Shown in pieces: positions 3,773 through 37,634 of a DNA stretch of 46,806 bases. Within the stretch, counting starts at the first letter, position 1. Each line of letters begins with the position of its first letter. The DNA is taken from the UHGV virus genome UHGV-1361067; one strand, given 5' to 3'. The notes below the pieces were generated by a model that saw only the letters and a list, made by a program, of their open reading frames with translations, was not told the origin of the DNA and searched no databases. This DNA comes from a virus. The position numbers were made by a program, and so were the translations under genes.

Positions 3773-3824
3773 TGATGTAGTTATGTCAATGCGCCTTGAC
3801 GTAGATTCTAGCATGGCGTAGATT
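3773..3824 (+). promoter_or_regulatory. Rightward sigma70-like promoter with three copies of the TGAYGTAGATT motif
   Basis: TTGACG (3796-3801), 17-nt spacer, TAGATT (3819-3824). Motif copies: TGATGTAGTT at 3773, TGACGTAGATT at 3797, TGGCGTAGATT at 3814. The region is divergent with the leftward small-gene operon. Confidence 0.55.
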
Positions 3825-3850
3825 AAAATGAAACCTCTCGGAGAAATCTT

Positions 3851-4141
3851 ATGAAATGTGTCATTTTCGAGCTTGATGGCGTGCTGCGCGATGCTGAGGG
3901 TAATGCCATTGCTGGCAACGTTGCGCTGGCTAAGTCGCTCTACTCTGCCGGGCACGACGTCCTAATCATGAGGGCAAAGCATGCGTATGAGTGGCTGCAT
4001 GCTAACGATGTTTTCTATGATGACATTATGGCTTCGCACCAGCAGATTGACGCTGAAAGGGTGGCAATGGCGGTCGTGTCTGATGACGTGATTTATGCTG
4101 CCATGCGAAATGCGGGGATTCATTGCTGGCTTTACAAATAA
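3851..4141 (+). CDS. Hypothetical protein with a HAD-like N-terminal motif (VIFELDGVL)
   Basis: 96-aa ORF. GGAG lies 8 nt upstream of the ATG. The N-terminus resembles HAD motif I but with Glu in place of the first Asp. Confidence 0.5.
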   Translation: MKCVIFELDGVLRDAEGNAIAGNVALAKSLYSAGHDVLIMRAKHAYEWLHANDVFYDDIMASHQQIDAERVAMAVVSDDVIYAAMRNAGIHCWLYK

Positions 4142-4154
4142 TTTATTATAAATG

Positions 4155-4183
4155 TTGACGTGGATTCATGGTTGATGTAGATT
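4155..4183 (+). promoter_or_regulatory. Rightward promoter TTGACG-N17-TAGATT
   Basis: TTGACGTGGATT at 4155 and TTGATGTAGATT at 4172. It is preceded by AT-rich ATTTATTATAAAT. Confidence 0.5.
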
Positions 4184-4227
4184 GTAGTCATTGAGGCGGC
4201 CGGGGCCGAAATGAATGAGGTGCAAAA

Positions 4228-4560
4228 ATGCAATATCAAGAACGTACTACTGAATTACAAAACTTATATGCGGTTCGCGTAATAAATATGGTTTTAATGG
4301 GGATTGAGGTTAGTAAGTCGTCATACGTTGATCGCTTTATTCACTCACTCTACAACGGCGTTAAATCTAATTGGAATGAAGATTGCACATGGACTGAGCA
4401 CTTTGTTGAAAAACTTAACGAGGAGCGTGAGTCAATAAAAAATGGCTCTTATTGGAAGATGGGGGATTTTTTTAGATTAATTGCTGCTGAAGATAAGGAG
4501 TTCTGGGAGGCGATAGGTGTCCCATTTAAAACATGGAAAAGCATTCAGCTTTGCAATTGA
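4228..4560 (+). CDS. Hypothetical protein (AT-rich, moron-like)
   Basis: 110-aa ORF with a GAGGTG SD. Its GC content is markedly lower than the flanking genes. Confidence 0.5.
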   Translation: MQYQERTTELQNLYAVRVINMVLMGIEVSKSSYVDRFIHSLYNGVKSNWNEDCTWTEHFVEKLNEERESIKNGSYWKMGDFFRLIAAEDKEFWEAIGVPFKTWKSIQLCN

Positions 4561-4568
4561 TTACAGCC

Positions 4569-4592
4569 AGGCCCCGCAACGGGGCTTTTTCT
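4569..4592 (+). terminator. Rho-independent terminator GCCCCG-caa-CGGGGC + T5
   Basis: Perfect GC hairpin and T-run. The same hairpin core recurs at 37610. Confidence 0.6.
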
Positions 4593-7126
4593 TATCTCCT
4601 GCTCCTTCTAATCCATCCAGAGCCACGCTGTACGATGTGATCGTTGCATGCATATCTGATTGCGTCAATGAAGTGGTTCCACGCATCCACAATATTTGTG
4701 AGCACGTTACCCGTCAGCTTGTCCACCTTGTAACTGTACATAGTGAACTCTTCCTGAGTCTGTGTGCAGCGGTCATGAATGATGATGCTGTCGCAACCCC
4801 TGAGCCAGGTTACACCCTCCTCCACGCTCCCGGGCCACTTATTGCATGGATGGATATCAAATCCTGCGCGTTTGATGTGACTGATTGTTTCTGGCCGAGA
4901 GCAGTCCCCATACCATCTTGCCTTCCTGGAGAGTGGGAATGATTGCTCCATCGCTGTAGGTGTGTCGGTAATCTCAAGGCCTACACGGCCGTATTCGCGC
5001 GCGACGTAAAGGTTGCGGCGGTCATCAGGAAGTTTCTCAATGTAAACCTCAACCATCGCCGTTGCGTCCTGCGAGAATCCAAAGTCGATGCCAAAGTAAG
5101 GCCCATGCCATTCCGGCTTAACCTCGAAATCAGCAACGCGCCACTTACCGCCAAATACCTGCTCATCATTACGCTTATTAAAGCGCCCACCCCACACCCA
5201 TTGATAGCGGTCGAAGTCGGTCTCTTTCATGCGTTGCATTTGGCTTGGGAGCGGAGTATCCCAGAACCACGGATTGTCTGAGTAATTACACTCCATAATC
5301 AGGTTTTCATCATCCTCATAGATGCCGCCATTTTCGCGCAATTTATTATAAAAAGGCTCAACCCATATTTTCCACGTCGGGTCATGCTCTTTATTTGGGT
5401 TGAAAGTCACCCATATCTCTGACCCTTCAGCGCGGACTGTTGGGGTGAGGATTTCCCAGCTTGTCTGGCTGACGTTTTCCGCCTCCTCGACCCAAGCTAC
5501 TGTAATGCCAGCGAAGCCTTTTACGGTCGTCTGGTTGCGATACAGGCCTTTAAAGCGGAACTTTGCTTTCGTTACCTTGTGTGTTATTTCGTTGTTGATG
5601 ACGCGAAACTCTTTTGTCTCGCCCTTCCTGTCAATCTCGTCTTTCAGCTCCTGATATGAACTATCCTCAATAGACTGCTGAATCTCACGAAAACAAGCTA
5701 TCCTGTCAGGCTTAAAGCGTGCACGCTCCGTAAGTATTGTTGTTACTGTCCTTGTTTTTCCGCTGTTGTGTGTAACCGTGCCATCAGCAAGCAGGAAAAG
5801 ATGATCGCCATCAATAGTGAACCCAGCGTATTCACCATGCCCGACATAAGACAATGACACCTCAGACATCTTTCCACGGGTTGACTTGGTTTTCTCTGCT
5901 ATCTTCCTTTTTACTCGGCATGGGATTGTATGAAGGTCACCACTAACGAACACCTCCCATACGTCCTTTTCGTATATTCTTTTCTCACCTTTATATTCAA
6001 AGGTGACATCAGTCTTTTTGATTATGCTTGACTTGAAGCCAAGCGATCTTGCCACATCCATCAAAGAGAAGGCCATTTCTTTATTTATTGATGTGAAAGA
6101 ATAGCTTTTCTTTTTCTGGTCATAATGCGAATCAGTATCCAATAGCCCAGCCAGAATCTGAAGTCTTACCTCTCTGCTGTTTTTGATATAGCAGTCAGGT
6201 ATGTGTTTATTATTAATCACCCCAAGCTGCTGCATTTTAGTTAGTAACGGGTTGGTGTTCTTCCCCATGCCAGCAGCTCGACCATTAGTTATCGCATAGA
6301 CAGGGCATCTATCATCGTCGCGAACCTTTACCTGCATCCCGTATTGGCTTGCCACGTTGTGAATGTAGTCAACTATCTCTGGATCAGGCGTGCACACTTC
6401 AACACCACGAGATGAACCATCACCTAACCATAAACCAAGAAAGTACGGGTCAACTGGGACGCTTTGGTCATTAAAATCCCATCCTGTTCGCCACCCTTTA
6501 AAGACATGGCGGAACTTTTTTGAAGTTGCGCGCGACAAATATTCTGAAACACCAATATTCAGTATTTCAGGTTCATTCGGGTAATAACGATAAATTCTTT
6601 TACCATCCGGTGTTTTTGTCTCGTCACTGATAGCAGATGGAATCTTTCGTAATGACAGTATGTGACTTGAGTTGACAGTGTAGTCATCAGCATATTTTTG
6701 ATGAACCGTATACATGTCATCAAACCCCCGACAGATGTTTAAAACATTTCGTGGTTTACTGTCTGGACCCATAACCTTATCGCCAACAACGATATCCTCT
6801 ACGCGTTTTAGGCTACCATCAAACATCCTCACCATCGTGCCGATGGCTAAGCATCCGCGCCCGCCAAACACAATCTTATTACGCTTGGGGTAAAGTAGCT
6901 TTTCCAGCTTTTCTGGTATCAGGTGATCAACGCCAATATCAGAGTCGCTAACGTCATCAACTCCGCTTTGCGTCATTTTTAGTTTGCGAACAATCTGCTT
7001 ATCTGTATTAACAACACCGAACACCGCAGATTCAGGCGCATCAATCACGCCATCGCCAATAATCTCTTCGAGTTTTTCAATTGCTGGTGCTGAGAGTCTT
7101 TTGCGTGCCATATATAGATTCCTCAT
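4592..7126 (-). CDS. Terminase large subunit, interrupted by an in-frame intein
   Basis: 844-aa ORF. The N-extein ends …KIVFGGRG, and the C-extein begins SGKTRTV…, so the junction reconstitutes the Walker A motif FGGRGSGKT. Walker B-like VAWVEEAE lies downstream. Without the intein the protein is about 481 aa. Confidence 0.8.
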   Translation of the reverse strand: MRNLYMARKRLSAPAIEKLEEIIGDGVIDAPESAVFGVVNTDKQIVRKLKMTQSGVDDVSDSDIGVDHLIPEKLEKLLYPKRNKIVFGGRGCLAIGTMVRMFDGSLKRVEDIVVGDKVMGPDSKPRNVLNICRGFDDMYTVHQKYADDYTVNSSHILSLRKIPSAISDETKTPDGKRIYRYYPNEPEILNIGVSEYLSRATSKKFRHVFKGWRTGWDFNDQSVPVDPYFLGLWLGDGSSRGVEVCTPDPEIVDYIHNVASQYGMQVKVRDDDRCPVYAITNGRAAGMGKNTNPLLTKMQQLGVINNKHIPDCYIKNSREVRLQILAGLLDTDSHYDQKKKSYSFTSINKEMAFSLMDVARSLGFKSSIIKKTDVTFEYKGEKRIYEKDVWEVFVSGDLHTIPCRVKRKIAEKTKSTRGKMSEVSLSYVGHGEYAGFTIDGDHLFLLADGTVTHNSGKTRTVTTILTERARFKPDRIACFREIQQSIEDSSYQELKDEIDRKGETKEFRVINNEITHKVTKAKFRFKGLYRNQTTVKGFAGITVAWVEEAENVSQTSWEILTPTVRAEGSEIWVTFNPNKEHDPTWKIWVEPFYNKLRENGGIYEDDENLIMECNYSDNPWFWDTPLPSQMQRMKETDFDRYQWVWGGRFNKRNDEQVFGGKWRVADFEVKPEWHGPYFGIDFGFSQDATAMVEVYIEKLPDDRRNLYVAREYGRVGLEITDTPTAMEQSFPLSRKARWYGDCSRPETISHIKRAGFDIHPCNKWPGSVEEGVTWLRGCDSIIIHDRCTQTQEEFTMYSYKVDKLTGNVLTNIVDAWNHFIDAIRYACNDHIVQRGSGWIRRSRR
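5765..6853 (-). mobile_element. Intein (363 aa) with a double-LAGLIDADG homing endonuclease, in the terminase P-loop
   Basis: Begins with Cys (CLAIGTMV…) right after GGRG. Ends …LLADGTVTHN, followed by the +1 Ser (SGKT). Internal LGLWLGDGS and LAGLLDTDS motifs match LAGLIDADG. Boundary codons were verified on the sequence (gca at 6851-6853 is Cys; gtt at 5765-5767 is Asn). Confidence 0.75.
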
Positions 7127-7210
7127 CAGGGCATCATTGAAGTGAATGCGGCAGGCGGTGATGAGTCGCTTTTCGGGTGCCCCCTAGCCGCATTGATTAT
7201 TATAAATCAG

Positions 7211-9802: not shown

Positions 9803-9808
9803 AAATCC

Positions 9809-10657: not shown

Positions 10658-10717
10658 GTTAAAAAGTGACCATTGCACATATTGCGTCGATGCTGGGTGT
10701 TTATGTCGATTAAATGG

Positions 10718-10747
10718 TTTGCGTGAGTGCAGATTGTTCAGTACAAT
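10718..10747 (+). promoter_or_regulatory. Putative rightward early promoter TTGCGT-N17-TACAAT
   Basis: Hexamers at 10719-10724 and 10742-10747. It is followed by a strong AAGGAGGAAG SD for the gene at 10774. Confidence 0.4.
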
Positions 10748-10773
10748 TTGCACAACGCAAGAAGGAGGAAGTG

Positions 10774-11052
10774 ATGCACGCAGAAGGCTCAAAGATGAAG
10801 TTCGTTTATGACCACCTTGCCACCATGAATAGCGGGGAGGTGATATCCGTCCATTTCGAAAATGATTTATCAGATTCAGTGGTCAGGGGTTACAAAGAGG
10901 AGTGCGGCGTATCTGATATCCCGCCAGAGTACAGAATGAACAGAAACATGTTCCGATCTTATGCTGCAAAGATTGCCATTGCGCATAACATGAACATCAA
11001 GACCAAAAACGGCCCGATGGGTAAATTCCTGTACATCTGGAAGGTTTGCTGA
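10774..11052 (+). CDS. Hypothetical protein
   Basis: Starts at the ATG at 10774 (MHAEGSKMKF…) after an AAGGAGGAAG SD. Its stop overlaps the next start (TGATG). Confidence 0.55.
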   Translation: MHAEGSKMKFVYDHLATMNSGEVISVHFENDLSDSVVRGYKEECGVSDIPPEYRMNRNMFRSYAAKIAIAHNMNIKTKNGPMGKFLYIWKVC

Positions 11053-12701
11053 TGAATACATACGAAATTATCGCCATGAAAAAATCCGTCTGGAAATCGG
11101 ATTCATCAACAGACCCGCTCGATGAGGCTGACATTCCTGAGTTCAGGGAGAAATACAAGATTCCACCAGGATCACTTGGTGAGTTCATCCAGGAGATAGA
11201 AAAAAACTTCGAGCGCCGTGATGATGGCGAAAAGTATCGACTTGTTGGCGCGCTTGGTCTTGCTCAGATAATGGCGGGCAGATTTATTATCGGCCCCACA
11301 GGAAGTAAGTGCTCAACTGGCATTTTCCTCGTGGCGAGGTCTGGAGCAGGGAAGCAGGCTCCGGTAAATTTCATAAAGCAATATGCCGAAGCTCTCATGA
11401 TAAGTGACCGTCTTTGCACTACTACTGCGACATCACTAAAGCAAATACAGACCAGCATGATTGAAGGTGATGGCTCCCTGCTTTACGTGGTAAACGATGA
11501 CAAGCAGCACATTGACTCATGGAACGACCCGCGCAGCGCATATCTTGGAGGAACAGCTCCGTGGTATCGCGGATTATCTGATGAGGGTGGATGGGTGCCG
11601 ACAAGGACAATAATCAGGGATATTGAGGAGAATATGGCTAAAGCCATGAACCCCAAGACGATAGTTAGTGTTGCTATGGCGGAAGGCTGGATTGTTCCGC
11701 GTATTGGCGGTGCGCAGGATGGGATGATTGACTATAAAAGATTGGCGCAGATGGATCACAGTGTTGGCAGAAACCTGAAAAAAGTTATGGCTGAGCATGA
11801 ATTATGCACGCGCGATGGAGGCATTGAGAACGCGAGATTTATTCCACTCATCACTGTAACTCCGGTTCAGGGTATTGATGCAGTCAGGTCATGGCAGAAG
11901 GATGGCGGCATGGGCAGGACGTTGTTCATTCTTGGTCATGGCGATGATGAGGAAATGCCATTGCTCAAAAGAGAGCAGCCGACAGGTGAGGTAAACAGGA
12001 GGATAGTAAATGAATGGAAGCAAAGAATCCTGCGCTCAATAACCCGAGTTGAATTTGAAAGCGAAAAGGTAAACGACAGGCGTTATGAGCTTACGTGCCA
12101 CCTTGAGAAGTGTCTTGGAAATGTGGATGGTGTAATTGGAGATGTTGTCCCACGTGCCGGGCAGATGATTGTGGACCTTGCCTCGATATGCGCATTTGCA
12201 GACCTTTCGAGTCGCAATGGAATGACGCCAGTTTTGTGCGACCGGCATCTTGAATGGGCTTATATGACAGTGATAAACCACCTGCGCTCACTTCGTGATT
12301 ATATAGAAGGTGACGTTGCATTTAGTGGCCTTGAAGAGGATGAGTGGGAAAACATCATAGCCAAAATGAGAAAGGTGATGGCAGGTAAGAAATTCATTAA
12401 TAAGCCTTACACGTCTGTACTGAAAAGCGGGTTGTGCCGTGGACGAATTGAGACGATCATTAAGGCAGCAAATTCAAATCATCTACAGGTGACGCCTGAC
12501 AGGTTCATTTCTGAGGTTCTGGTTTCCATTACAGAGAACCGACACTCACCTATCGACATTGAGGCTTCTGCTGTTAACGGTGGGTCAAAAATCGTCTTCA
12601 GGGATGAGGGGTCATGGTCTGGGCTGCGAATGAATGCCTCGGTGAGAAACATACTTTCAGCCGCCGTTAACAGGATGAAATTTATGAGAGGTCTGAAATG
12701 A
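11052..12701 (+). CDS. Putative replication-associated NTPase (degenerate P-loop)
   Basis: About 549 aa from the ATG at 11052. Contains P-loop-like IGPTGSKCSTGIFLVARSGAGKQ. It lies adjacent to the iteron region and could be an initiator, helicase loader or primase-associated ATPase. The function is inferred. Confidence 0.4.
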   Translation: MNTYEIIAMKKSVWKSDSSTDPLDEADIPEFREKYKIPPGSLGEFIQEIEKNFERRDDGEKYRLVGALGLAQIMAGRFIIGPTGSKCSTGIFLVARSGAGKQAPVNFIKQYAEALMISDRLCTTTATSLKQIQTSMIEGDGSLLYVVNDDKQHIDSWNDPRSAYLGGTAPWYRGLSDEGGWVPTRTIIRDIEENMAKAMNPKTIVSVAMAEGWIVPRIGGAQDGMIDYKRLAQMDHSVGRNLKKVMAEHELCTRDGGIENARFIPLITVTPVQGIDAVRSWQKDGGMGRTLFILGHGDDEEMPLLKREQPTGEVNRRIVNEWKQRILRSITRVEFESEKVNDRRYELTCHLEKCLGNVDGVIGDVVPRAGQMIVDLASICAFADLSSRNGMTPVLCDRHLEWAYMTVINHLRSLRDYIEGDVAFSGLEEDEWENIIAKMRKVMAGKKFINKPYTSVLKSGLCRGRIETIIKAANSNHLQVTPDRFISEVLVSITENRHSPIDIEASAVNGGSKIVFRDEGSWSGLRMNASVRNILSAAVNRMKFMRGLK

Positions 12702-12751
12702 ATTTTAACACTCGCATCACTTCCACCGCCAAAAAATGCAATCTTGAGTAA

Positions 12752-12782
12752 CAAAAACCCTCCATCAGGAGGGTTTATTTTT
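12752..12782. terminator. Bidirectional terminator AACCCTCC-atca-GGAGGGTT flanked by A/T runs
   Basis: Hairpin between the convergent 11052-12701 (+) and primase (-) genes. It overlaps the primase stop. Confidence 0.55.
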
Positions 12783-13658: not shown

Positions 13659-13670
13659 AAAATCTTCCTG

Positions 13671-13699
13671 TTGACGATGATGTAGATTCATTGTAATTT
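13671..13699 (+). promoter_or_regulatory. Rightward promoter TTGACG-N17-TAATTT with TGATGTAGATT in the spacer
   Basis: First element of the duplicated module; compare 17664-17692. Confidence 0.5.
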
Positions 13700-30126: not shown

Positions 30127-30833
30127 TATTTTGCTCCTTTGCTTTTAGCGGCCTTTCTGGCGGCTTTCTCTTTCAGTTTCTGTTTATTCAGCTTAACCCG
30201 CTCATAAGACGCATCATACTGCTCGCGCGTCATGCCTTCCGGTTCCGGGTATTTTGATTTTATCATCTGCTGATACTCGGTCATGGTCAGGTCTTCCGCT
30301 TCCTCACGGGTGATTCCGAAGTGAGTGCGAGCAGAGATGATGTAATCCGACATTCTCAACTCACTGGTTGTGCGCTTTTGGTTTTCCGAGCGCTGAGGAA
30401 CCTTGAGCGGAGACTTGCCGATGATGCCATGCTCCATCAGGTTTCGAGCAATAATAATAATGTCATTTACTGGCATTCTTCCGGTGACGTACTTTACACC
30501 GCGCGGAGTTGGCTTCCATGACCCAATGAGCACCGAGATATCATCATCGCAACAAGACTGCATGATGAGACAGGCGGCGCTGAGCACTTTCTTGCCATAA
30601 ACAGGACGTGACAGGATTTTTGCAATCTGAATCTGCGCGCCATACGGCATTGACTGAATGGCGCCGAGTATGGCAGCGTATTCATACCCATTAAGCGTAG
30701 CGTACAGCTCGACAATCTCTTTCGGTGAGCCAAGCTCATTCATCGCCGCAAATGATGGTTTGAAGAAAAAAGACTTGTCATCCAGGGAGATGCGCATCTC
30801 TCCTATTTCTGTTAGCGGTGTGCGTTGTCTCAT
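30126..30833 (-). CDS. Putative tail assembly chaperone
   Basis: 235-aa ORF immediately upstream of the TMP (overlapping stop/start). Has a basic C-terminal tail. Called by position only. Confidence 0.4.
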   Translation of the reverse strand: MRQRTPLTEIGEMRISLDDKSFFFKPSFAAMNELGSPKEIVELYATLNGYEYAAILGAIQSMPYGAQIQIAKILSRPVYGKKVLSAACLIMQSCCDDDISVLIGSWKPTPRGVKYVTGRMPVNDIIIIARNLMEHGIIGKSPLKVPQRSENQKRTTSELRMSDYIISARTHFGITREEAEDLTMTEYQQMIKSKYPEPEGMTREQYDASYERVKLNKQKLKEKAARKAAKSKGAK

Positions 30834-30868
30834 GTCTAAATCCTGTTTTCATAATGACGTAATTATAC

Positions 30869-30898
30869 CATTGACAGGTGGCGCAAAACTGACGTAGA
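30869..30898 (+). promoter_or_regulatory. Rightward promoter TTGACA-N18-TAGATT with a TGACGTAGATT motif
   Basis: A near-palindrome TAATGACGTAATTA lies upstream at 30851-30864. Confidence 0.5.
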
Positions 30899-30929
30899 TT
30901 GAAAGCATAAGGTGATTGAGGGTTTGACA

Positions 30930-31067
30930 TATGAACGAGACTGATGCTGATTTGAGGTTTTACATCGACCTTTACATTGACCAGGGATACACCTATGAAG
31001 AGGCCCGCGTAAAGGCGATTTTGTTGCTGGCTAAGATTGGCGTAGTGGTGGAGGATAAGAGATGAGC
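30930..31067 (+). CDS. Hypothetical small protein (45 aa)
   Basis: MNETDADLRFYIDLYIDQGYTYEEARVKAILLLAKIGVVVEDKR. Stop overlaps the next start. Confidence 0.35.
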
Positions 31068-31451
31068 ACTGATTACAGCAAGATGAGTGATTTTGAAATT
31101 AACAAGCTGGTATCTTTGGCCTCTGGCAAGAATATAAAATTAATCAGTGTTGATGCTGATGATAATGAGATTGGTGTAATTGTTGGGCAAAAATGCACTC
31201 GTCAGAGACTTCCATTTGACCCTTGCAACAGCCCAGCGGATGCATGGCCGATTATTGTTGGCAACAAGATTAGCATCGTATCACTCGATAACAAATGGAT
31301 TGCGGCGCCGGTTGATACAGTAATTGATGGCATCACCGGAGATTCTGAAGTTTGTTTTTATGCAAGCTCTGATGCCGTCTTTGATGTAAATCCACTCCGC
31401 GCCGCCATGATTGTCTTCCTCATGATGCAGGAGTCCAAGAATGCCAGTTAA
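31062..31451 (+). CDS. Hypothetical protein (DUF2591/NinX-like?)
   Basis: 129-aa ORF with a GGAGGATAAGAG SD. The N-terminus MSDFEINKLVSLASG resembles a phage family of unknown function. Recalled, low certainty. Confidence 0.5.
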   Translation: MSTDYSKMSDFEINKLVSLASGKNIKLISVDADDNEIGVIVGQKCTRQRLPFDPCNSPADAWPIIVGNKISIVSLDNKWIAAPVDTVIDGITGDSEVCFYASSDAVFDVNPLRAAMIVFLMMQESKNAS

Positions 31452-31596
31452 CAAAGATGACGAAGATGTGATATCTGCATATGCAGGCCAGCGCATAGAC
31501 ATAAACTATGCGATAGCAATTCACCTGAGACGATCTGAGTTTGTTGCCAATCTGATTTTGTGGGGCATCAAGAACAAGACGAGGAAGGCGTGATGA
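31441..31596 (+). CDS. Hypothetical small protein (51 aa)
   Basis: An AGGAG SD precedes ATGCCAGTT. Overlaps both neighbours. Confidence 0.35.
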
Positions 31597-31829
31597 CAAG
31601 GAGGAAATATAAAAAATATGAATTCTGGTTTTGCGGAAACAAAATGTACAGCTGCGAAACATTAAAGCGCGTGAGATGGTACAACAAACTGTTTTATCTT
31701 TCTTCGCACATTATCTTGTGGCGATGCTCGATTGTTACCGATCTCGGATATGATGAAGCTATTGAGATGGCAAAATGCTATCTTAATGAAGATGGGTTTT
31801 ATGAGCAAATCATGGGACAGAAATTATAA
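31593..31829 (+). CDS. Hypothetical Cys-containing small protein
   Basis: Starts at MTRRKYKKYEFWFCGN after an AGGAAGG SD. 78 aa. Confidence 0.45.
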   Translation: MTRRKYKKYEFWFCGNKMYSCETLKRVRWYNKLFYLSSHIILWRCSIVTDLGYDEAIEMAKCYLNEDGFYEQIMGQKL

Positions 31830-31853
31830 ACCCCCTTTCGGGGGTTTTTTTAT
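31828..31853. terminator. Bidirectional terminator AAACCCCC-tttc-GGGGG + T7
   Basis: Perfect hairpin between the rightward cassette and the minus-strand major tail gene. Confidence 0.65.
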
Positions 31854-32605
31854 TGCGTGACGGTAACAACACACTTGGTGGAGTCAACGTAATCAGGACT
31901 GGTTGCCGAATCCATCACTCGGCAGAAGTACGTACCAGCATCACCTGCGGCAGCATCGTCCTTGGTGAACGTGTCGGTAGTAGCACTGCCGATCGGCGTG
32001 GTGCCTTTATACCATTGGTAGGTATAAGGCTTGACACCGCCAGCTGCAACTACCGGGCCGAGCGTCAGAGCGTCGTTAGTGGCAACGCTTTTGTCTTTAC
32101 TGATATCAGTAGTCAGCGTCAAATCTTCGATGCTGGACACGTCAACAGTAGAGCCATCATAAGGCTTGAATTCAACTGAGCCGGTGATAATGTCGTTGGT
32201 GCCGCCATCGTAGCTCAGAGCGGTAATGTTGCAGTAGGCAACAACAACGGTATTACCGGTGGTCTGACGCACCCACAGCGAAGGCTGACGACGAGCTTTT
32301 ACTTCGGTGACAAAGTATTTGATGAGATTATGCACGCCATACTCATCAGCCTTGTCAGCCTTACGAACTTCAAAATCACCGGAAATGGTGAGGTCTGCGG
32401 TAGTGACCAGCGTCGCGACAAAGCCATCGCCATCATCAGCCTCTGAGGTAGTGGTGCTTGGGCTGAAGTCGACGCCTTTTGAGGTCATGGGAGCAAAAAA
32501 CTTCCAGTCTTCCTCTGCTGGCACAGCATCCCAGCAGCCATCAGCCAGCTCGATGAGCGACTGGCGACCTGTGATGATGCCGTTATCATTTGCACAAATA
32601 GCCAT
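31850..32605 (-). CDS. Major tail (tube) protein with C-terminal Ig-like domain (lambda V-like)
   Basis: 251 aa. The C-terminal segment DAGTYFCRVMDS…TVTQ is Ig/Big_2-like. Position matches the tube gene. Confidence 0.6.
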   Translation of the reverse strand: MAICANDNGIITGRQSLIELADGCWDAVPAEEDWKFFAPMTSKGVDFSPSTTTSEADDGDGFVATLVTTADLTISGDFEVRKADKADEYGVHNLIKYFVTEVKARRQPSLWVRQTTGNTVVVAYCNITALSYDGGTNDIITGSVEFKPYDGSTVDVSSIEDLTLTTDISKDKSVATNDALTLGPVVAAGGVKPYTYQWYKGTTPIGSATTDTFTKDDAAAGDAGTYFCRVMDSATSPDYVDSTKCVVTVTQ

Positions 32606-32650
32606 GTTTAGAATCCTCTCTGTTTAGCTAAACAATCGCATTATATCATG

Positions 32651-32679
32651 TTGACAGGTTTTGATTGGTGGTGTAGATT
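32651..32679 (+). promoter_or_regulatory. Rightward promoter TTGACA-N17-TAGATT (GTGTAGATT variant)
   Basis: Hexamers at 32651-32656 and 32674-32679. Confidence 0.5.
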
Positions 32680-33107
32680 AAATGGCAGATAGTTTTCGTA
32701 AGCGACTTTGCGGGTTTTTAGAAACTGACCACAAAGATAAATGCAAACGAAGAAATGTATCTGGCAGTAGCCTAACGGCCAAACACCAGCAAGGTCTTCC
32801 GACTCCTTGTCAATGAATTCGGCGCACTGGCCCGGTGTGATTAATAATGGGCACACAACAGGTAAGAGCATTGTCAGGTAGCTTCAGGGGACACGCCCGC
32901 ACTGGTGACGACCTATGCGCAAAAGTACGTGTGGTAAGTCCTGGAGTGCTCTTTCCGTTGTGGTAATGCGGCTATGCGCACGTGGCAAGGTAGAAATATG
33001 CTCCTTTTGTGGGTATGCCTGCTGGATTTACCGACCAGCAACCTGGAGGCACCAGGGCCACAACAATAATTCGAATCCTGTCGCGGGAACCATATTCGGT
33101 GAGCGCA

Positions 33108-33293
33108 ATGATACAAATCCAAAAAATCCACGATGATTACTGGCGCATAGCTGACAAAAATAACAGCAGGATTGCTGGTATATCAAAGGTCGGGAAGTGG
33201 TATGTTGTCGCAAATGCTAATGGGCGATATGATGCCCGATTCGAATATCTTGGCGATGCCATTGATTATTTATTATGTAGTAATGACTACTAA
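33108..33293 (+). CDS. Hypothetical small protein (61 aa)
   Basis: MIQIQKIHDDYWRIADK…. Sits about 430 nt downstream of the promoter and is followed by a terminator. An alternative longer frame begins at 33009. Confidence 0.4.
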   Translation: MIQIQKIHDDYWRIADKNNSRIAGISKVGKWYVVANANGRYDARFEYLGDAIDYLLCSNDY

Positions 33294-33318
33294 AAGCCGC
33301 TCATCAGCGGCCTTTTCT
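33293..33318 (+). terminator. Rho-independent terminator GCCGCT-catc-AGCGGC + CTTTTCT
   Basis: Hairpin directly after the small ORF. Confidence 0.5.
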
Positions 33319-33700
33319 ATTCACCAAAAACAACCCTCAGCAACAATTCATAAACCGGTCTCTGCTCCGTTGTGAGCGTCGGGCGTCCAAGCGGAGCCTG
33401 CAACTGAATCATGCCAATGCAACTATCAACGGGATGCTCCTTGATATATGAGATGACATCAAGCGCTTTTGCTTTTGTCTCCTCGATGTTGTACTGACCC
33501 TGTTGGCCGACAACATAGAGCGAAAAATAATAATCATTGCTGAGGTCTTTGCTTACGTTCGTACCGCCATTGGATTGCAGCACCATAAACCGGTCTGTGC
33601 CAACTTCGGTATCGTTCCAGAACTCAAGCTGAGAAGTCCACCCATCATAAAGACCGGCATCGCTAAGGTACTGGTCAACAAGCTCAAGCATATCTCTCAT
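33317..33700 (-). CDS. Tail terminator / tail completion protein (lambda U-like position)
   Basis: 127 aa, between the gp10-like gene and the tube gene. Called by position. Confidence 0.4.
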   Translation of the reverse strand: MRDMLELVDQYLSDAGLYDGWTSQLEFWNDTEVGTDRFMVLQSNGGTNVSKDLSNDYYFSLYVVGQQGQYNIEETKAKALDVISYIKEHPVDSCIGMIQLQAPLGRPTLTTEQRPVYELLLRVVFGE

Positions 33701-34113
33701 TTTAGCGTCATCTCTTTTTTGATTACCTGATCGACAAGCTCGCGTGTGTTTTCGCCAGCCTTGAGAAGGAATTTAGGCTCGCCGCTCTTATCCCATACAT
33801 TTCCCTTTCCTTTAAGTCTCCCTGTGCGCGGAGTATTCGTGCCAAGCAATTTACCTGGTGCATTATGGACATACAGGGCGTAATTAGCGGAATACCCAAT
33901 CTTGCCAGTTATGCGAGTGCCATTAACCTCAACGGTGTCATACTGGCTATTTATCAGCGTTGACGTGGCTACTGGCGTCATGGAGGCCGATTCAGTCCTG
34001 ATGATGTGGTTGGCGGCTTTTATTGCTGATACCGCCTTCTCACCAGTAATCTCACCGACTATCTGCTGGGTACGCTTAATCGCCTGCTGGATACCTCTCA
34101 TTTTGGCGGCCAT
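33697..34113 (-). CDS. HK97 gp10-like head-tail joining protein
   Basis: 138 aa. Motif GKGNVWDKSGEPKFLLKAG is typical of the HK97 gp10 family. Confidence 0.5.
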   Translation of the reverse strand: MAAKMRGIQQAIKRTQQIVGEITGEKAVSAIKAANHIIRTESASMTPVATSTLINSQYDTVEVNGTRITGKIGYSANYALYVHNAPGKLLGTNTPRTGRLKGKGNVWDKSGEPKFLLKAGENTRELVDQVIKKEMTLK

Positions 34114-34116
34114 ACA

Positions 34117-34461
34117 TTACCCCGTTACCAGCGCAAAATCAGGAAGGTCGTTGCGATTTAGTGTATTGCCGTAATTCACGACGCTTCTAATCTGGTCAGC
34201 TCCGGCAGCCAAAGGGTCAGCACTGGTAATGGTGCCAAGCATGATGAAGTCGCCAACAGACGCATCCTGGTATTCCGTCCAGAATGTGTTTTTCTGTGCA
34301 ATCTCATTGCCAGCTGTGCCGGTGGTCAGATTCTTATCGAAGCCATAATCACACATGATGGGCTCTGGCGCGGCGAATGTTGGCTTGCCATACTTATCCT
34401 TGCCAGTAAGCCGCCAGATTGTGCATGGCTGCGTATAGCTCCATCTCGCTATCGCTGACAT
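34117..34461 (-). CDS. Head closure / head-tail adaptor protein
   Basis: 114 aa in the connector-gene series. Called by position. Confidence 0.4.
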   Translation of the reverse strand: MSAIARWSYTQPCTIWRLTGKDKYGKPTFAAPEPIMCDYGFDKNLTTGTAGNEIAQKNTFWTEYQDASVGDFIMLGTITSADPLAAGADQIRSVVNYGNTLNRNDLPDFALVTG

Positions 34462-34579
34462 GGTGCGGCCTCAAGAGTATAAATCCAGCGCGGAACAGGA
34501 AGGCGCAGCAATACCAGAATAACCAGCAGCGGCATGCACCATTTACGGATTGCGATATTTACAGTTAATGTTGACGTTT

Positions 34580-34972
34580 TCATCTGCACTTACTCCCGGT
34601 GACAACACGAAACCACGGCTTTGCTGCCCCATCAGGCTCTTCCACAAGGTCGCCTGTGCAGTCTGCCGTATCGAGTAGCTTCATCTGATTGTAAAGGGCC
34701 ATCCACGGCTTACTGCCATAGCCAAATGACTGCGACGCACCAGATGGCGCCCGGTGGCTGGTTATGTATCTTCCGGCTGTATTTGAGGCGATAAGGATTG
34801 AGGCCCATAGCAGAATTGCATCCTGCCTACATGTGTCTTCAGGGTAATTAAGCTCAAGACACTCTGTGATGCTCGCCACCAGACACAGGATTCCCGTTGC
34901 GTCTGCTGTGGTGATAGTCACGCCTCTTGACGCCATGGCGGCGACAAGTTCACTTGCTGTCGGTGCTGCCAT
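34580..34972 (-). CDS. Head-tail connector protein (gp6-like)
   Basis: Likely start is MAAPTASELVAAMA at 34972. About 130 aa. Confidence 0.4.
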   Translation of the reverse strand: MAAPTASELVAAMASRGVTITTADATGILCLVASITECLELNYPEDTCRQDAILLWASILIASNTAGRYITSHRAPSGASQSFGYGSKPWMALYNQMKLLDTADCTGDLVEEPDGAAKPWFRVVTGSKCR

Positions 34973-35237
34973 TCTTTTTGCTCTCCCGAATCTTCCACCA
35001 CATCTCAAAAAGGTTTTTTGCCACCAGTGACAGCGCGCCAAGTATAGAGGCTACCGCTGCCCACTCGGTAATCGAATGGGGGATCATTGAGGCAATGTAT
35101 GATTGTGCGACCGGCGTCTGCTCTGCCACCTTCAGGCCAAGACCCGTGCCGATGGAGGTATAACCGGCTTTGTCGATTACCTGGCCGACAGTGCCACTAA
35201 TTATCTGGTTTGCGGCGTGCTGAAGCGCGTCTCTCAT
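34950..35237 (-). CDS. Hypothetical small membrane protein
   Basis: 95 aa with a hydrophobic segment WAAVASILGALSLVAKNLF. Confidence 0.4.
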   Translation of the reverse strand: MRDALQHAANQIISGTVGQVIDKAGYTSIGTGLGLKVAEQTPVAQSYIASMIPHSITEWAAVASILGALSLVAKNLFEMWWKIRESKKNGSTDSK

Positions 35238-35398
35238 TAATTATTCTCCGAATGATGAACTTCCAGCATCTGTACACCTGAACCAGCGAAAGCGCCATGA
35301 CGATAACGCCGATTGCTATATCCAATTTCGCCGCCTTACGTTTTTCAGCACGGAACAGCGCGGGTTGAGTGTTGTTGGTTTAATTTTATCATAAAGTG

Positions 35399-35427
35399 TT
35401 GACGTAGATTGAGGGTGTCGCTATAGT
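35399..35427 (+). promoter_or_regulatory. Strong rightward promoter TTGACG-N17-TATAGT with TTGACGTAGATT
   Basis: A second TGACGTAGAAA copy lies at 35429-35439, around +1. Confidence 0.6.
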
Positions 35428-35467
35428 GATGACGTAGAAACAACAATAAATGTTAGAGGTGATGAGG

Positions 35468-35761
35468 ATGAATGAATTCAAAGGTACGCCGGGGCCGTGG
35501 TTTGGAGATAACAGCAGGGCAATAGGGCCAAAATCAACAGATGACGACCAGTCTTATGGAGTGATTATTCCTGTCGGCTGGGTTGAGTTTGACCCTGAAG
35601 TTGAGGTTCAAGTTGCCAACCAACGAATGATGGCCGCTGCGCCGGAATTGCTGGAGGCTCTGGAGATGCTTGTAGTCTTCACTACGCCAACAAAAAGGAA
35701 TGCCACTGCCTTGAGCAAGGCCTATGCCGCAATCGCAAAAGCACTCGGAGAACCCCAATGA
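35468..35761 (+). CDS. Hypothetical protein
   Basis: Start ATG at 35468 (MNEFKGTPGPW…) after a GAGGTGATGAGG SD. Confidence 0.5.
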   Translation: MNEFKGTPGPWFGDNSRAIGPKSTDDDQSYGVIIPVGWVEFDPEVEVQVANQRMMAAAPELLEALEMLVVFTTPTKRNATALSKAYAAIAKALGEPQ

Positions 35762-35881
35762 TCCGCCACGAAATACGAAAAGAAGACCTGAAGGCGTGGG
35801 GCAAGTTCAAAATCAAGCTGGCATTAATTGTTATCGGATTCGCTATTGCCAGTGCAATCTGTTTATCAAAGTGAGGAAAAG

Positions 35882-36697
35882 ATGACATCTCTCGGAAAAA
35901 TTTACTCAGACAAAGAAACTCGCGGCGGAATCGTGGTCAACAAAGGTTATCAGGTTCCTGTCGATCAGCTTTATCTTGAGCCGGGATACAACATCCGCGA
36001 AGCCGATGAGCAGCACGTTGAATACTTCGCGCAGTGCTGGGAATCAGGCCAACCAATCCCGGCGTTAACTGTTATTCCTGATGCTGACGGAAAGAGAATC
36101 AAGATTCTTGACGGCCAGCATCGTTATCTTGGCGCACTGCGCGCCATTGAGCGCGGCGTACCAATTGTGCGCATTGAGTGCAAAGACTTCACCGGCGATG
36201 AAGCGGATAAAATCGCCTTCATGGTGTCATCCAGTCAGGGTAAGCAACTCGACCCGCTTGAGCGTGCAAAGGCTTATGTGCGCCTGAAGGGGTTCGGATG
36301 GACGAATGAAGAAATCGCCAAAAAAGTAGGCCGCTCAGTTTCTGATGTGCAGATGCATCTGTCACTTGGTGATGTGCCTGATGCTATCAAGCAACGCATC
36401 AATGCAGGCCAAATCAGCTATGCCAACGCCGTTGCAGTCGCACGTGAGCATGGCGATGATGCCGTTAACGTTATTGATGCTGCTGTTGAGGAAGCGAAAG
36501 CGCAGGGCAAAGATAAGGTGACGGCGAAAACGCTCAAGGCCAAAAAAGTTAAGCCGATTGACCGCCTGATTCAGTTGCTGAAAGAAGCAGATCACATGGT
36601 TGTTGCTGAGGGTCACGTGGCACAGGAAACAGAAGAATTTTTGCGCCTTCCCTCTGCTGAACTGAATGAAGTGCTGGCGATTCTGGAGAAGCTGTGA
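35882..36697 (+). CDS. ParB-like protein (ParB/Srx N-terminal domain + HTH)
   Basis: KILDGQHRYLGALRA (ParB GxxR box) and an HTH TNEEIAKKVGRSVSDVQMHLSL. GAGGAAAAG SD. Confidence 0.65.
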   Translation: MTSLGKIYSDKETRGGIVVNKGYQVPVDQLYLEPGYNIREADEQHVEYFAQCWESGQPIPALTVIPDADGKRIKILDGQHRYLGALRAIERGVPIVRIECKDFTGDEADKIAFMVSSSQGKQLDPLERAKAYVRLKGFGWTNEEIAKKVGRSVSDVQMHLSLGDVPDAIKQRINAGQISYANAVAVAREHGDDAVNVIDAAVEEAKAQGKDKVTAKTLKAKKVKPIDRLIQLLKEADHMVVAEGHVAQETEEFLRLPSAELNEVLAILEKL

Positions 36698-36891
36698 TGA
36701 TTACAATTGGCACTGTTGCAAAAAACATAAAAGAAGGCGATCACATCCTAATGCGAGACGGCGTGGCTCGCCAGGTGGAGAAAATTCACTATCAGGAGGA
36801 CATAATCGCATTTGAAATGAAGCGTTACGAAGAAAAAACAAGGCATTTCTTATTTTATGATGAATGCGCAAATGTGGTGGAGAGTTGGTAA
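36694..36891 (+). CDS. Hypothetical small protein
   Basis: 65-aa ORF coupled to its neighbours (ATGA / TAATG). Confidence 0.4.
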   Translation: MMITIGTVAKNIKEGDHILMRDGVARQVEKIHYQEDIIAFEMKRYEEKTRHFLFYDECANVVESW

Positions 36892-37064
36892 TGAAACCCG
36901 AGCAATTCATAGAGAAAAACCTGCGCGAAAAACTGCCAGGCATCGACAACTCGGCTATAGAGGCCGCAATTACCCACTACAGGAGCAACCAGAGTGAAAA
37001 GAATGGCAAGATTTTCGATGAATGCCTGAAGGTTGCAAAACAACACATGATAAAGGTGAAGTGA
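36891..37064 (+). CDS. Hypothetical small protein
   Basis: 57 aa, MKPEQFIEKNLREKL…. TAATG overlap upstream and TGATG overlap downstream. Confidence 0.4.
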   Translation: MKPEQFIEKNLREKLPGIDNSAIEAAITHYRSNQSEKNGKIFDECLKVAKQHMIKVK

Positions 37065-37600
37065 TGAAACTAAAAATCAGCAAACTATTACTTGAATCAG
37101 CGTTAATATTTCAGGCGCGCAATGATGTTCGTTACTACCTGAACGGTATCTGCTTTATGCCAGATGGTCGCATTACATCAACTGACGGTCATCGAGCATT
37201 CATTGGTGGCAATCATGAAAATAAGTTGACGGAAAATGTGATCATCAAGATTGGCAAACCTCCAACAAAACGCTATGACTACGCCATCATTGATACCAAG
37301 TCGAAAATTGCAACGTATCATGATGAAGCTGGCGTGATGGTTGGCGCTGGCATCTGCGAAGAGATTGACGGCAGATTCCCTGACATTGACTGCGTGATAC
37401 CAAAGGAAATGAAAGCAGCAGAGGAAATTGGCTTCAATGCTGGCTATCTGGTTGACGTTGAGAAAGTGGCCAGGCTGTTTAATCCTAAATTCTGTGGCGT
37501 TAAGTTTGAATTGAATGGGAATACAAATGCCGCAGTTTGCTGTCTTAGTGCGCCATCTGGCGAGAATGCGAAGATTGTTGTTATGCCTATGCGTCTGTAG
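37064..37600 (+). CDS. Truncated beta sliding-clamp (DnaN)-like protein: domain II plus C-terminal strands
   Basis: 178 aa. DnaN motifs seen in order: DVRYYLNG, TDGHRA, DGRFPD, EIGFNAGYLVDV, and C-terminal IVVMPMRL*. E. coli DnaN ends …YVVMPMRL (recalled from memory). AGGTGA SD. Confidence 0.7.
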   Translation: MKLKISKLLLESALIFQARNDVRYYLNGICFMPDGRITSTDGHRAFIGGNHENKLTENVIIKIGKPPTKRYDYAIIDTKSKIATYHDEAGVMVGAGICEEIDGRFPDIDCVIPKEMKAAEEIGFNAGYLVDVEKVARLFNPKFCGVKFELNGNTNAAVCCLSAPSGENAKIVVMPMRL

Positions 37601-37605
37601 AAATC

Positions 37606-37634
37606 AAAAGCCCCGCAACGGGGTTTTTCTTTTA
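37606..37634 (+). terminator. Rho-independent terminator GCCCCG-caa-CGGGG + T-run
   Basis: Same hairpin core as the terminator at 4571. Confidence 0.6.

Follow-up and report, generated by a model that had tools for sequence, protein, structure and literature searches.

An RNA resembling the coding half of tmRNA and predicted divergent promoter nodes in the late region of a Roufvirus-like phage genome

The virus genome UHGV-1361067 (46,806 nucleotides (nt), hereafter the window) appears to encode, within its late region, an RNA that resembles the coding half of transfer-messenger RNA (tmRNA). The RNA lies in the third of four rightward gene cassettes (C1 to C4; the places occupied by C2 to C4 are referred to as slots 2 to 4) that a first-pass annotation of the sequence had placed among the leftward structural operons. 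Being conserved, covarying and tag-encoding, and without a tRNA-like half, it fits no known form of tmRNA and is the substantive result of this analysis. The cassette architecture is real, conserved and already visible in the published genome maps of Roufvirus-like and Jersey-like phages; it is of interest mainly for its overlapping divergent promoter nodes.

By megablast of positions 30000-38000, the window is 95-96% identical at the nucleotide level to Klebsiella phages ZX4, KpV2811 and BUCT541 and ~92% identical to pYD38-A and pIS4-A, both classified in Roufvirus. Several hundred Salmonella phage records show weaker similarity and were taken as Jersey-like without individual checking. The window appears to represent a Roufvirus-like, apparently virulent Klebsiella siphophage; no lysogeny module is found among its annotated open reading frames (ORFs), no systematic search for one having been made.

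Tag frame and structure of the slot-3 RNA

C3 had been described as a long leader followed by a 61-amino-acid (aa) ORF. The ORF is present, and the supposed leader consists of conserved structured noncoding RNAs, among them the domain that resembles the coding part of tmRNA (Table 1). When aligned with the relatives ZX4, pIS4-A and SCNJ1-C, this stretch is 92-100% identical and near-invariant up to position 32873. A 44-aa ORF within it (32682-32816) was ruled out, given that its frame differs from that of the tag and that SCNJ1-C carries a frameshifting indel.

At the predicted resume site, an alanine codon stands in the context AUAAAU/GCA, with U at -5 and A at -4, and the upstream A/U positions are invariant. 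Across 65 distinct sequences, we found 18 tag alleles that specify 10 peptides, all of them 10 codons long with the frame intact (for example, ANDEQFLAVA, ANDNVFLAVA, ANDNTFLAVA and ANEEVYLAVA). The variable sites are distributed 2/3/8 over codon positions 1, 2 and 3, and the variation is mostly synonymous; the stop codon is always kept and varies between TAA, TAG and TGA. This third-position bias argues that the tag is translated. Tags read by eye include ANDDLMMVAA in P1, ANDDVVLMAA in a prophage of enterohaemorrhagic Escherichia coli (EHEC), ANDNQYLAVA in a T5-like phage and ANEEAYLMVA in phage G17.

The predicted fold comprises three hairpins and one pseudoknot. In the first, which is similar to helix 5 of tmRNA, pairing is 100% in the outer stem CUGG...CCAG and 87% in the inner stem, with compensatory changes in both. 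The stem of the second hairpin occurs as GCAAGG/CCUUGU, GUGAGG/CCUCAU and GCGAGG/CCUCGU, and the pseudoknot, which is 100% paired, covaries as CCGA:UCGG, CCAA:UUGG and CCAG:CUGG; P1 and G17 have another sequence at this place that, by inspection, could pair similarly (GUCG:CGAC). The third (P7) hairpin combines its near-invariant loop with the stem variants GCCC/GGGC, GCCCAC/GUGGGC, GGCGGGAG/CUCCCGCC and GCCCUGA/UCAGGGC. In an alignment of 40 sequences, 95.8% of the cells in 22 pairs are standard pairs; shifting the 3' partners by 1-3 columns lowers this share to 31-52%. Double changes occupy 52 cells, a number attained by none of 500 shuffles (17.9 in the shuffles).

From 28 training sequences, we built a covariance model of the 96-nt core; it detects exactly one copy in the window (116.6 bits) and no copy in phage Jersey. 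Full-length matches outside the training set were obtained in the EHEC prophage (84.3 bits), the T5-like phage (68.1), the N4-like phage G17 (51.5) and P1 (40.0, E 9e-7). In both Roufvirus-like and Felix O1-like phages, a consensus promoter ends ~10-20 nt 5' of the conserved AGUUUUCG block.

Distribution among phages, prophages and plasmids

A sensitive blastn search with positions 32640-33110 returned 782 phage records, with 70-93% identity over 60-190 nt. Beyond the Roufvirus-like and related siphophages, the matches include Felixounavirus, Vi1-like Kuttervirus, Sashavirus-like, N4-like (G17, KP8) and T5-like phages and P1, and P22-like phages and prophages are also among the carriers. The matched stretches almost always bear no annotated feature in the phage records. 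Among complete E. coli genomes, 819 of 5,426 carry the stretch, in 730 plasmid and 150 chromosomal places that are unannotated in RefSeq; the sizes of the plasmids suggest that they are P1-like and SSU5-like phage-plasmids. The blastn matches in these genomes are prophages and phage-plasmids, not ssrA. In an 18-mer scan of genome contigs, one of 120 was genuine among the matches listed, the rest being chance matches in GC-rich genomes.

Both chromosomal prophages that were examined carry the element in the late leader, between the genes for the Q antiterminator and the holin. In these two E. coli lambdoid/P22-like prophages (locus L109, 3230-4215, and locus L108), the entire ~1-kb untranslated late leader consists of the RNA modules (the tmRNA-like core and hairpins with the conserved arms), which are located 3' of a tR'-like terminator hairpin and therefore would be made only after Q-mediated antitermination. 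Felix O1-like phages carry the element inside a tRNA array behind its own consensus promoter, and in P1 it is found between dmt and tRNA-Asn. In Klebsiella phage Kpn BU9 (locus L233, 1116-2137) and similar records, the genes for major head and head closure are separated by an RNA array, the core of which is at 1543-1638 in Kpn BU9; the four opposite-strand coding sequences annotated over it as hypothetical proteins are probably spurious.

A 2014 survey of 543 RefSeq bacterial virus genomes reported no tmRNA in enterobacterial phages (PMC4131195). The literature that we searched describes only the mycobacteriophage tmRNA cases and not this RNA; the coverage was incomplete, so that an earlier description is possible. 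Searched at the gathering and E-value thresholds, Rfam gives nothing over slot 3 except sub-threshold tmRNA matches.

Comparison with tmRNA

In every feature of its coding half that we tested, the phage RNA appears to be like tmRNA; by its tRNA-like domain and its Rfam score, it is not a member of the tmRNA family. tmRNA is regarded as a single or a permuted two-piece molecule in which tRNA-like and mRNA-like halves act together, and the E. coli SsrA tag is ANDENYALAA. The phage RNA shares with one-piece tmRNA (RF00023) a GCA resume codon after U(-5)A(-4), a 10-codon tag of the form A-N-D/E-x-x-F/Y-L-A-V-A, a stop codon that falls within the following hairpin loop and a pseudoknot further downstream. 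It differs from one-piece tmRNA in having no acceptor stem, T-arm or CCA and no demonstrable pseudoknot PK1, in the single downstream pseudoknot that was detected, as opposed to PK2-PK4, and in a tag that ends in AVA (VAA or MAA in the P1 and EHEC types), not LAA. In two-piece tmRNA (RF04321), the coding and acceptor parts can likewise be separate molecules. There, however, one permuted gene encodes a CCA acceptor that pairs with the coding piece, and neither an acceptor of this kind nor a pairing partner was found in the window. With ARAGORN, neither the window nor ~100 related loci nor the prophage leaders gave a tmRNA, and the window gave no tRNA either. At relaxed thresholds, the program returned only low-confidence noise, including one item that took the ANEEMYLAVA frame together with a false acceptor inside a tail gene.

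Bxz1-like mycobacteriophages carry complete tmRNAs, and mycobacteriophage DS6A carries a tmRNA fragment with the tRNA-like domain only; a molecule similar to this fragment strongly inhibits tmRNA, perhaps by titrating SmpB (PMC4131195). The DS6A fragment and the RNA described here are both phage-borne and both correspond to one half of tmRNA; what DS6A retains is the tRNA-like half, and what remains here is the coding half. The unexplained species 1 and 2 RNAs of T4 are similar to it as stable structured RNAs inside a phage tRNA array or operon, and no tag frame is known in them.

Other modules of slot 3

The tmRNA-like RNA is followed in slot 3 by a long hairpin, a second structured module and a remnant of tRNA-Met. 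In other phages, the CACAACAGGUAAGAGCAUUG/AGUGCUCUUUCCGUUGUG arms of the hairpin flank different, shuffled modules, and temperate relatives show several interiors between the arms, placed 5' or 3' of the core and often containing T-arm-like hairpins (GGUUCGAAUCC). Similarity between the window and its relatives stops exactly at position 32873, with which the 5' arm ends, or is regained at 33070, in the tRNA-Met remnant. The arms look like module boundaries and may serve as recombination joints and as processing punctuation, the latter a possible role of the GGUAAGAGCAUUG/CAGUGCUCUUUCC hairpins. We dropped an interpretation of the arm AGUGCUCUUUCC as an rrn-type boxA (UGCUCUUU), since in P1 (GCGUCCUUUCC) it is the pairing, not the boxA sequence, that is conserved.

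The second module has a tRNA-like outline without CCA and is homologous to GUUGUGGUGAAUGCGCAGGCUGAUGCGC...CCGGAGUUCAGCACCGGCCACCACAAC in other phages. In relatives, slot 3 ends with intact tRNA-Arg(UCU) and tRNA-Met on the plus strand. The tRNA-Met remnant is the only element in the window that bears a CCA. It was rejected as a part of a tRNA-like domain: it has no 5' acceptor, the pairing of the sole candidate (UUUUGUG) would include four G:U pairs, and its T-stem is broken.

The Felix O1-like loci (Escherichia phage EC6, locus L005, 2165-2246, and 12 others) differ in what immediately follows the tmRNA-like RNA. In half of them it is an ordinary tRNA-Arg(UCU); in the other half, the EC6 type, it is a tRNA-like RNA without a D-arm, with G3:U70, the loop CUUCUAA (UCU anticodon-like) and an encoded CCA, which shows a compensatory stem change (GCUGU/ACAGC versus GCGGU/ACCGC) and is not called by ARAGORN. 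G3:U70 is the alanine identity pair. In Vi1-like phages, the adjoining tRNA-like element has, by eye, a G3·A70 mismatch. These adjoining elements are suggestive; they are not universal and do not occur in the window.

Possible template for a tag, or decoy

The first product of the slot-3 operon would be the ~165-nt RNA, a mimic of the coding half of tmRNA without the tRNA-like half. Stalled ribosomes could read it by a route similar to trans-translation that would need a partner with tRNA-like function, and the added tag would keep the N-terminal A-N-D/E...F/Y pattern of the host SsrA tag and change the C-terminal LAA. In its complete form, which we put forward tentatively as one possibility, the proposal is that the coding half of tmRNA constitutes an undescribed class of phage RNA that has spread horizontally among P1 and P22-like/lambdoid, Felix O1-, Vi1-, T5-, N4- and Roufvirus-like phages, that stalled ribosomes are directed onto this template by host tmRNA/SmpB or by a tRNA-like partner from the array, and that proteins are thereby tagged with ...(F/Y)LAVA.

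The main rival to reading as a template is a decoy role, which appears doubtful to us but merits serious consideration. The RNA would mimic the coding region of tmRNA and titrate SmpB, S1, RNase R or a defence nuclease, thus blocking or protecting host trans-translation, and its tag would never be translated. In favour of a decoy, no tRNA-like domain was found, and the inhibition of tmRNA by a molecule similar to the DS6A sequence sets a precedent for it (PMC4131195). In addition, the RNA is located in tRNA arrays, and such arrays have been viewed by some authors as anti-defence loci (PMC12803027). Nevertheless, variation of the tag that is concentrated at third positions and mostly synonymous is not what a decoy leads one to expect, and the invariant length of 10 codons, together with a stop that is kept in three different forms, fits selection on the peptide and not on RNA shape alone.

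Much less probable is the view that the RNA is a decaying relic of a complete phage tmRNA that hitch-hikes with tRNA arrays and has no present function. Slot 3 of the window does hold a decay product, the 3' remnant of tRNA-Met, and the neighbouring modules are shuffled and variable. However, between phage families with almost nothing else in common, the element itself retains 70-93% identity, with compensatory changes in all three helices and the pseudoknot and with an intact frame in 18 of 18 alleles.

Rightward units and their promoter family

The four plus-strand cassettes are present where the first-pass annotation had placed them, each with a promoter-like site and a terminator-like hairpin and T-run, both predicted. 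Their number was an underestimate: we count at least seven rightward units, the additional ones being located at 40770-42179, at 44442-45411 and from 46588 across the end of the window to ~334. Nine of the 10 cassette ORFs tested match known families (further E-values are 8e-62 for phrog_3007 and 3e-35 for NinX). The identification of a DnaN fragment in C4 was borne out by a match of the 192-aa protein to residues 135-289 of E. coli DnaN (E 1.5e-10). In relatives, its homologue is labelled "RusA-like Holliday junction resolvase" in RefSeq and "DNA polymerase III beta subunit" in GenBank; the RusA-like label is doubtful. The predicted promoters of C1-C4 match the sigma-70 consensus at 9-10 of 12 positions and are kept at homologous positions in relatives. 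At the resolution of 1-kb bins, the GC content is 0.443 in the C2 bin compared to 0.476-0.52 nearby, whereas C4, at 0.485-0.491, does not stand out; the GC skew inverts within the cassettes.

All cassettes had been thought to use the TTGACGTAGATT promoter motif. The motif does form an enriched, non-random family, with 15 matches at ≤2 mismatches versus 3.3 expected (none of 100 shuffles reached 15) and seven exact matches to the core CGTAGATT versus 0.8 expected. Its use in the cassettes is less uniform than claimed, in that C3 has only the TAGATT -10 element and C2 employs the motif as the -10 and not the -35 element. An exact copy is located at the promoter of the leftward unit (10348), variant copies are found at the replication-gene promoters (13677, 17671), and the motif is kept at homologous sites in ZX4, pIS4-A and SCNJ1-C; the family was not found in phage Jersey. 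This occurrence before replication genes and the leftward unit, together with the conservation in relatives, points to a genus-wide promoter family and not to a mark of the cassettes. Partial copies recur just 3' of the -10 element, GATGACGTAGAAA after the C4 promoter (35399-35440) and GATGATGTAGATA after the 46588 promoter (46588-46623), and in both C1 promoters a second CGTAGATT/TGTAGATT copy is the -10 element itself. The recurring copies look like repeated binding sites for a regulator. At 44432-44459, an 8-bp inverted repeat, TTGACTAA...TTAGTCAA, encloses a TTGACGTAGA core and coincides with a leftward TTGACT -35 element and a plus-strand TGATATAAT at 44410-44418, in what appears to be a dense divergent control region.

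The terminator hairpin shared by two cassettes was confirmed: the 14-mer GCCCCGCAACGGGG occurs exactly at 4571-4584 and 37610-37623, and much of the T-rich tails is alike. Bidirectional terminators, said to be frequent, were flagged on both strands for C2 and at 37663-37683, 12755-12776 and 42186-42209; those of C1 and C3 were not so flagged.

Predicted divergent promoter nodes

It had been concluded that leftward late transcription must read through the cassettes. We found that nearly every leftward segment has its own predicted extended -10 promoter (TGNTA[T/A]AAT), and, with these promoters overlapping the rightward ones, read-through is not required. The motif TGNTATAAT has five matches versus 1.5 expected, four of them on the minus strand, each ~29-36 nt 5' of the start of a leftward structural gene, and the more general TGNTAWAAT has 10 matches versus 4.4 expected, nine on the minus strand. 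The element at 32640-32648 is identical in ZX4, pIS4-A and SCNJ1-C. At the C2, C3, C4 and 46571/46588 nodes, the distance between the -10 element of the minus strand and the -35 element of the plus strand is 0-8 bp, which amounts to a near-complete overlap of the two promoters. Overlapping divergent promoters probably divide the transcription of the late region into many short units. Read-through is possible at C1, where the terminator has no minus-strand T-run. The minus-strand terminator hairpin of the adjacent small-gene unit (2722-2700) overlaps the extended -10 element of the portal gene (2728-2720), and transcripts begun at this promoter would be without the full hairpin.

These features can be combined in a simple model of the late region. 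The packaging, head and tail region would be not a single leftward late operon with foreign insertions but a series of short leftward operons, between which at least seven rightward units occupy fixed slots. Each slot would start at a compact node of overlapping divergent promoters and end at a node of convergent terminators. The rightward promoters would be sigma-70-like, of the TTGACG/TAGATT family, and the leftward ones of the extended -10 type that needs no -35 element. RNA polymerase presumably could not occupy both promoters of a node at once, and the resulting mutual exclusion could switch the nodes from early (rightward) to late (leftward) transcription, driven perhaps by a factor that binds TTGACGTAGATT. 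The cargo of the slots would include core genes (ParB/KorB-like, beta-clamp fragment), small exchangeable accessory genes, homing endonucleases and the noncoding RNA operon of slot 3, and the conserved promoters, terminators and RNA elements could act as recombination joints for swaps of this cargo.

Fixed slots with variable cargo

A tblastn search placed the conserved flanking genes in 25 related loci. Every Roufvirus-like relative examined has all three slots occupied, with 775-1426 bp in C2, 537-1319 bp in C3 and 2688-4065 bp in C4, and the ParB-like gene is present in every locus with a measurable C4 slot. The cassettes had been called moron-style, and a comparison of their presence and absence in relatives had been suggested. 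The predicted promoter and terminator of each cassette and the mosaic ends agree with this description. The comparison, however, found no empty C2, C3 or C4 slot in Roufvirus-like loci, that is, no presence/absence polymorphism within the genus; only the distant phage Jersey has no counterpart of slots 3 and 4 at the equivalent positions.

The contents of the slots differ in part between relatives. Slot 2 of pIS4-A contains a superinfection-immunity gene and an HNH endonuclease, slot 4 of ZX4 an additional cytosine methylase and endonuclease VII, and ZX4 has nothing where the window has its HNH homing endonuclease unit (40628-42209). Breaks in the similarity to relatives fall at 30902, where the C2 -10 element ends, and at the terminators (31820-31826, 33302-33321, 37623-37636), with further breakpoints at gene boundaries (31005, 31064, 36700, 36890). 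Thus, the proposed shuffling of cassette ends holds to the extent that, by the similarity breakpoints, the ends behave as exchange junctions.

Opposite-strand units among structural genes are also a feature of other Jerseyvirus and Roufvirus genomes. ZX4, pIS4-A and SCNJ1-C have the same three slots, and phage Jersey (KF148055) has antisense units between terminase and portal genes, between portal and head morphogenesis genes and among the tail genes (Jersey_03, Jersey_05, Jersey_22-25). The cargo in Jersey is different, and neither the TTGACGTAGATT family nor the slot-3 RNA is present there. Morons of the lambdoid phages HK97 and HK022 were reportedly described by Juhala and coworkers and by Hendrix and coworkers in 2000. 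Like them, the units of the window are small, consisting of a single gene or a few genes bracketed by a promoter and a terminator of their own and placed between late-operon genes, and their ends are mosaic boundaries. In contrast to lambdoid morons, the slots of the window are filled in all close relatives, contain conserved core genes and use the early-type promoter family of the phage itself; the direction of the units is opposite to that of the late genes, an overlapping leftward promoter accompanies each unit, and the annotated ORFs give no sign of lysogeny.

Accordingly, the cassettes seem to be better described as fixed exchange slots with partly variable cargo than as sporadic morons. 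That they are true morons, recent and independent insertions of foreign genes between formerly adjacent genes that were kept for the benefit of host or phage, is unlikely. The promoter and terminator of each cassette, the differences in cargo exemplified by slot 2 of pIS4-A, the missing slots 3 and 4 in Jersey and the somewhat lower GC content of C2 (0.44 versus 0.48-0.52) would all be expected of morons; the filling of every slot in the Roufvirus-like genomes, the ParB-like gene in all measurable slot-4 loci, a promoter family that also precedes replication genes and annotated ORFs without a lysogeny module would not. Finally, it is scarcely credible that the plus-strand ORFs and promoters are antisense artefacts in a single leftward late operon: although the signals are all consensus matches and the total of promoter-like matches in a scan of 28000-46806 does not exceed that of shuffles (28 versus 24.4), most of the cassette ORFs tested match phage families strongly (E 1e-87 for ParB, with phrog_3007, NinX and phrog_19403 likewise), the ORFs are annotated in relatives, the GC skew inverts, and the tRNAs in slot 3 of relatives are on the plus strand.

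Weight of the evidence

Several observations weigh against the reading developed here. The aligned RNA sequences are kin, so the covariation counts overstate the number of independent events. The best Rfam matches in an E-value scan, to the permuted tmRNA family RF04321 (24.9 bits) and to RF00023 (10.1 bits), both aligned over AUAAAUGCAAACGA..., do not reach the gathering score of 47 that applies to either family. A tRNA-like domain (acceptor stem with G3:U70, T-arm, 3' CCA) was not detected in the window by ARAGORN or Rfam. Upstream of the tag, PK1 is not established; the candidates CUUUG/CAAAG and AGUUUU/AGAAACU show no covariation and have no partner in Felix O1-type sequences. Recent capture of host ssrA was considered and rejected, the local alignment being limited to 13 nt of the tag and within the shuffle range. 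For complementarity to host tmRNA, the duplex energy, a crude measure for long RNAs, is no better than in shuffles. As for the architecture, every promoter, terminator and 5' end reported here is a consensus match and only a prediction. The enrichment of the leftward motifs is modest, with the counts reached by one of 100 shuffles for TGNTATAAT and by three of 100 for TGNTAWAAT, and we only infer the temporal switch and the recombination joints. With all these points taken into account, the reading as a whole, namely, a multi-unit architecture of divergent nodes together with a slot-3 RNA like the coding half of tmRNA, appears to us reasonably probable.

Genome layout and additional features

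The gene order of the window was derived from PHROG and Pfam matches (Table 1). The large terminase (4592-7126, minus strand) has 844 aa, about twice the usual length. Its N-terminal and C-terminal parts are separated by an intein that carries a homing endonuclease (Pfam Hom_end_hint, residues 92-178; Hom_end/LAGLIDADG, residues 309-375). The sole Rfam match above threshold in the window is an int-alpA RNA motif (RF02996, 42.6 bits) at 7131-7194 on the minus strand, within the 84 nt that separate the phrog_9747 gene from the start codon of the terminase. In IMG/VR locus L012, an int-alpA motif lies a few hundred nt 3' of the tmRNA-like RNA.

Table 1. Predicted features of the window (coordinates in nt; signals are consensus matches)
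Feature	Position	Strand	Details
RNA like the mRNA-like domain of tmRNA	32691-32853	+	~165 nt; 5' block AGUUUUCG
Tag frame	32743-32775	+	after resume context GAUAAAU; GCA AAC GAA GAA AUG UAU CUG GCA GUA GCC UAA = ANEEMYLAVA*
Helix-5-like hairpin	32761-32789	+	stop codon in loop
Second hairpin	32790-32809	+	loop CCGA (32799-32802) pairs with UCGG (32819-32822), pseudoknot
Third (P7) hairpin	32830-32852	+	near-invariant 15-nt loop GGUGUGAUUAAUAAU
Long hairpin	32854-32962	+	109 nt; conserved arms CACAACAGGUAAGAGCAUUG / AGUGCUCUUUCCGUUGUG, variable interior
Second structured module	32957-33069	+	closed by GUUGUGG/CCACAAC; hairpins beside both closing strands; by inspection and single-sequence fold only
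tRNA-Met 3' remnant	33070-33092	+	23 nt; T-loop, 3' acceptor strand, ACCA
C1 promoters	3796-3824, 4155-4183	+	both TTGACG-17-TAGATT
C1 ORF	3851-4141	+	96 aa; partial match to phrog_415 (annotated polynucleotide kinase)
C1 ORF	4228-4560	+	110 aa; phrog_19403, E 7e-49
C1 terminator	4569-4587	+	contains GCCCCGCAACGGGG
C2 promoter	30871-30900	+	TTGACA-18-TAGATT; -10 supplied by CTGACGTAGATT
C2 ORFs	30931-31065, 31062-31451, 31441-31593, 31593-31829	+	first, phrog_17424; second, NinX (PF10765); fourth, phrog_10786
C2 terminator	31828-31847	both	flagged on both strands
C3 promoter	32651-32679	+	TTGACA-17-TAGATT; kept in four phages
C3 small ORF	33108-33293	+	61 aa; phrog_35112
C3 terminator	33296-33311	+	
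C4 promoter	35399-35427	+	TTGACG-17-TATAGT; TTGACGTAGATT...TATAGT
C4 ORF	35450-35761	+	phrog_1273
C4 ParB/KorB-like gene	35828-36697	+	phrog_1033, E 1e-87
C4 ORF	36694-36891	+	
C4 beta-clamp fragment	37022-37600	+	192 aa
C4 terminator	37606-37628	+	GCCCCGCAACGGGG
Second C4 hairpin	37663-37683	both	bidirectional
Fifth rightward unit	40628-42209	+	promoter 40628-40656; bidirectional terminator 42186-42209
Free-standing HNH homing endonuclease	40770-42179	+	469 aa; phrog_559; adjoins capsid-assembly operon
Sixth rightward unit	44442-45411	+	three genes; TTGACGTAGATT at 44442; ORFs 44484-45366; terminator 45392-45411
Seventh rightward unit	from 46588	+	TTGACGTAGATT; across window end to terminator 313-334
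Extended -10 TGCTATAAT (TGNTATAAT)	2720-2728	-	before portal gene (start 2684)
Leftward sigma-70-like promoter	3760-3789	-	TTGACA-18-CATCAT; back to back with first C1 promoter
Extended -10 TGGTATAAT (TGNTATAAT)	30862-30870	-	29 nt 5' of chaperone/tape-measure start (30833); abuts C2 -35
Extended -10 TGATATAAT (TGNTATAAT)	32640-32648	-	before major tail protein (start 32605); overlaps C3 promoter
Extended -10-like TGATAAAAT	35383-35391	-	before connector/tail-completion segment; 8 bp from C4 -35
Extended -10 TGATATAAT (TGNTATAAT)	40774-40782	-	before leftward capsid-assembly operon
Extended -10 TGATAAAAT	46571-46579	-	before lysis genes; divergent node with plus-strand TTGACGTAGATT at 46588
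Portal and head morphogenesis	2684-323	-	portal start 2684
Small genes	3761-2998	-	
phrog_9747 gene and intein-bearing large terminase	7687-4592	-	
Early-looking leftward block	10288-7769	-	
Replication and recombination genes	10714-20481	mostly +	
Chaperone, tape measure, tail tip	30833-20753	-	PHROG/Pfam
Major tail protein	32605-31850	-	PHROG/Pfam
Connector and tail-completion genes	35237-33317	-	PHROG/Pfam; first gene start 35237
Capsid-assembly block	40743-37687	-	PHROG/Pfam
Small genes	44495-42361	-	PHROG/Pfam
Lysis genes	46547-45516	-	PHROG/Pfam

Implications

The cassette architecture matters mainly for the annotation and engineering of therapeutic Klebsiella phages, in that it shows where cargo can be swapped. 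The tmRNA-like RNA raises the question of whether phages rewrite the tags of trans-translation or block ribosome rescue. If it is read as a template, the tag would keep the N-terminal determinants of the SspB type and alter the C-terminal ones of the ClpX type, and the phage would reprogramme both ribosome rescue and protein quality control.

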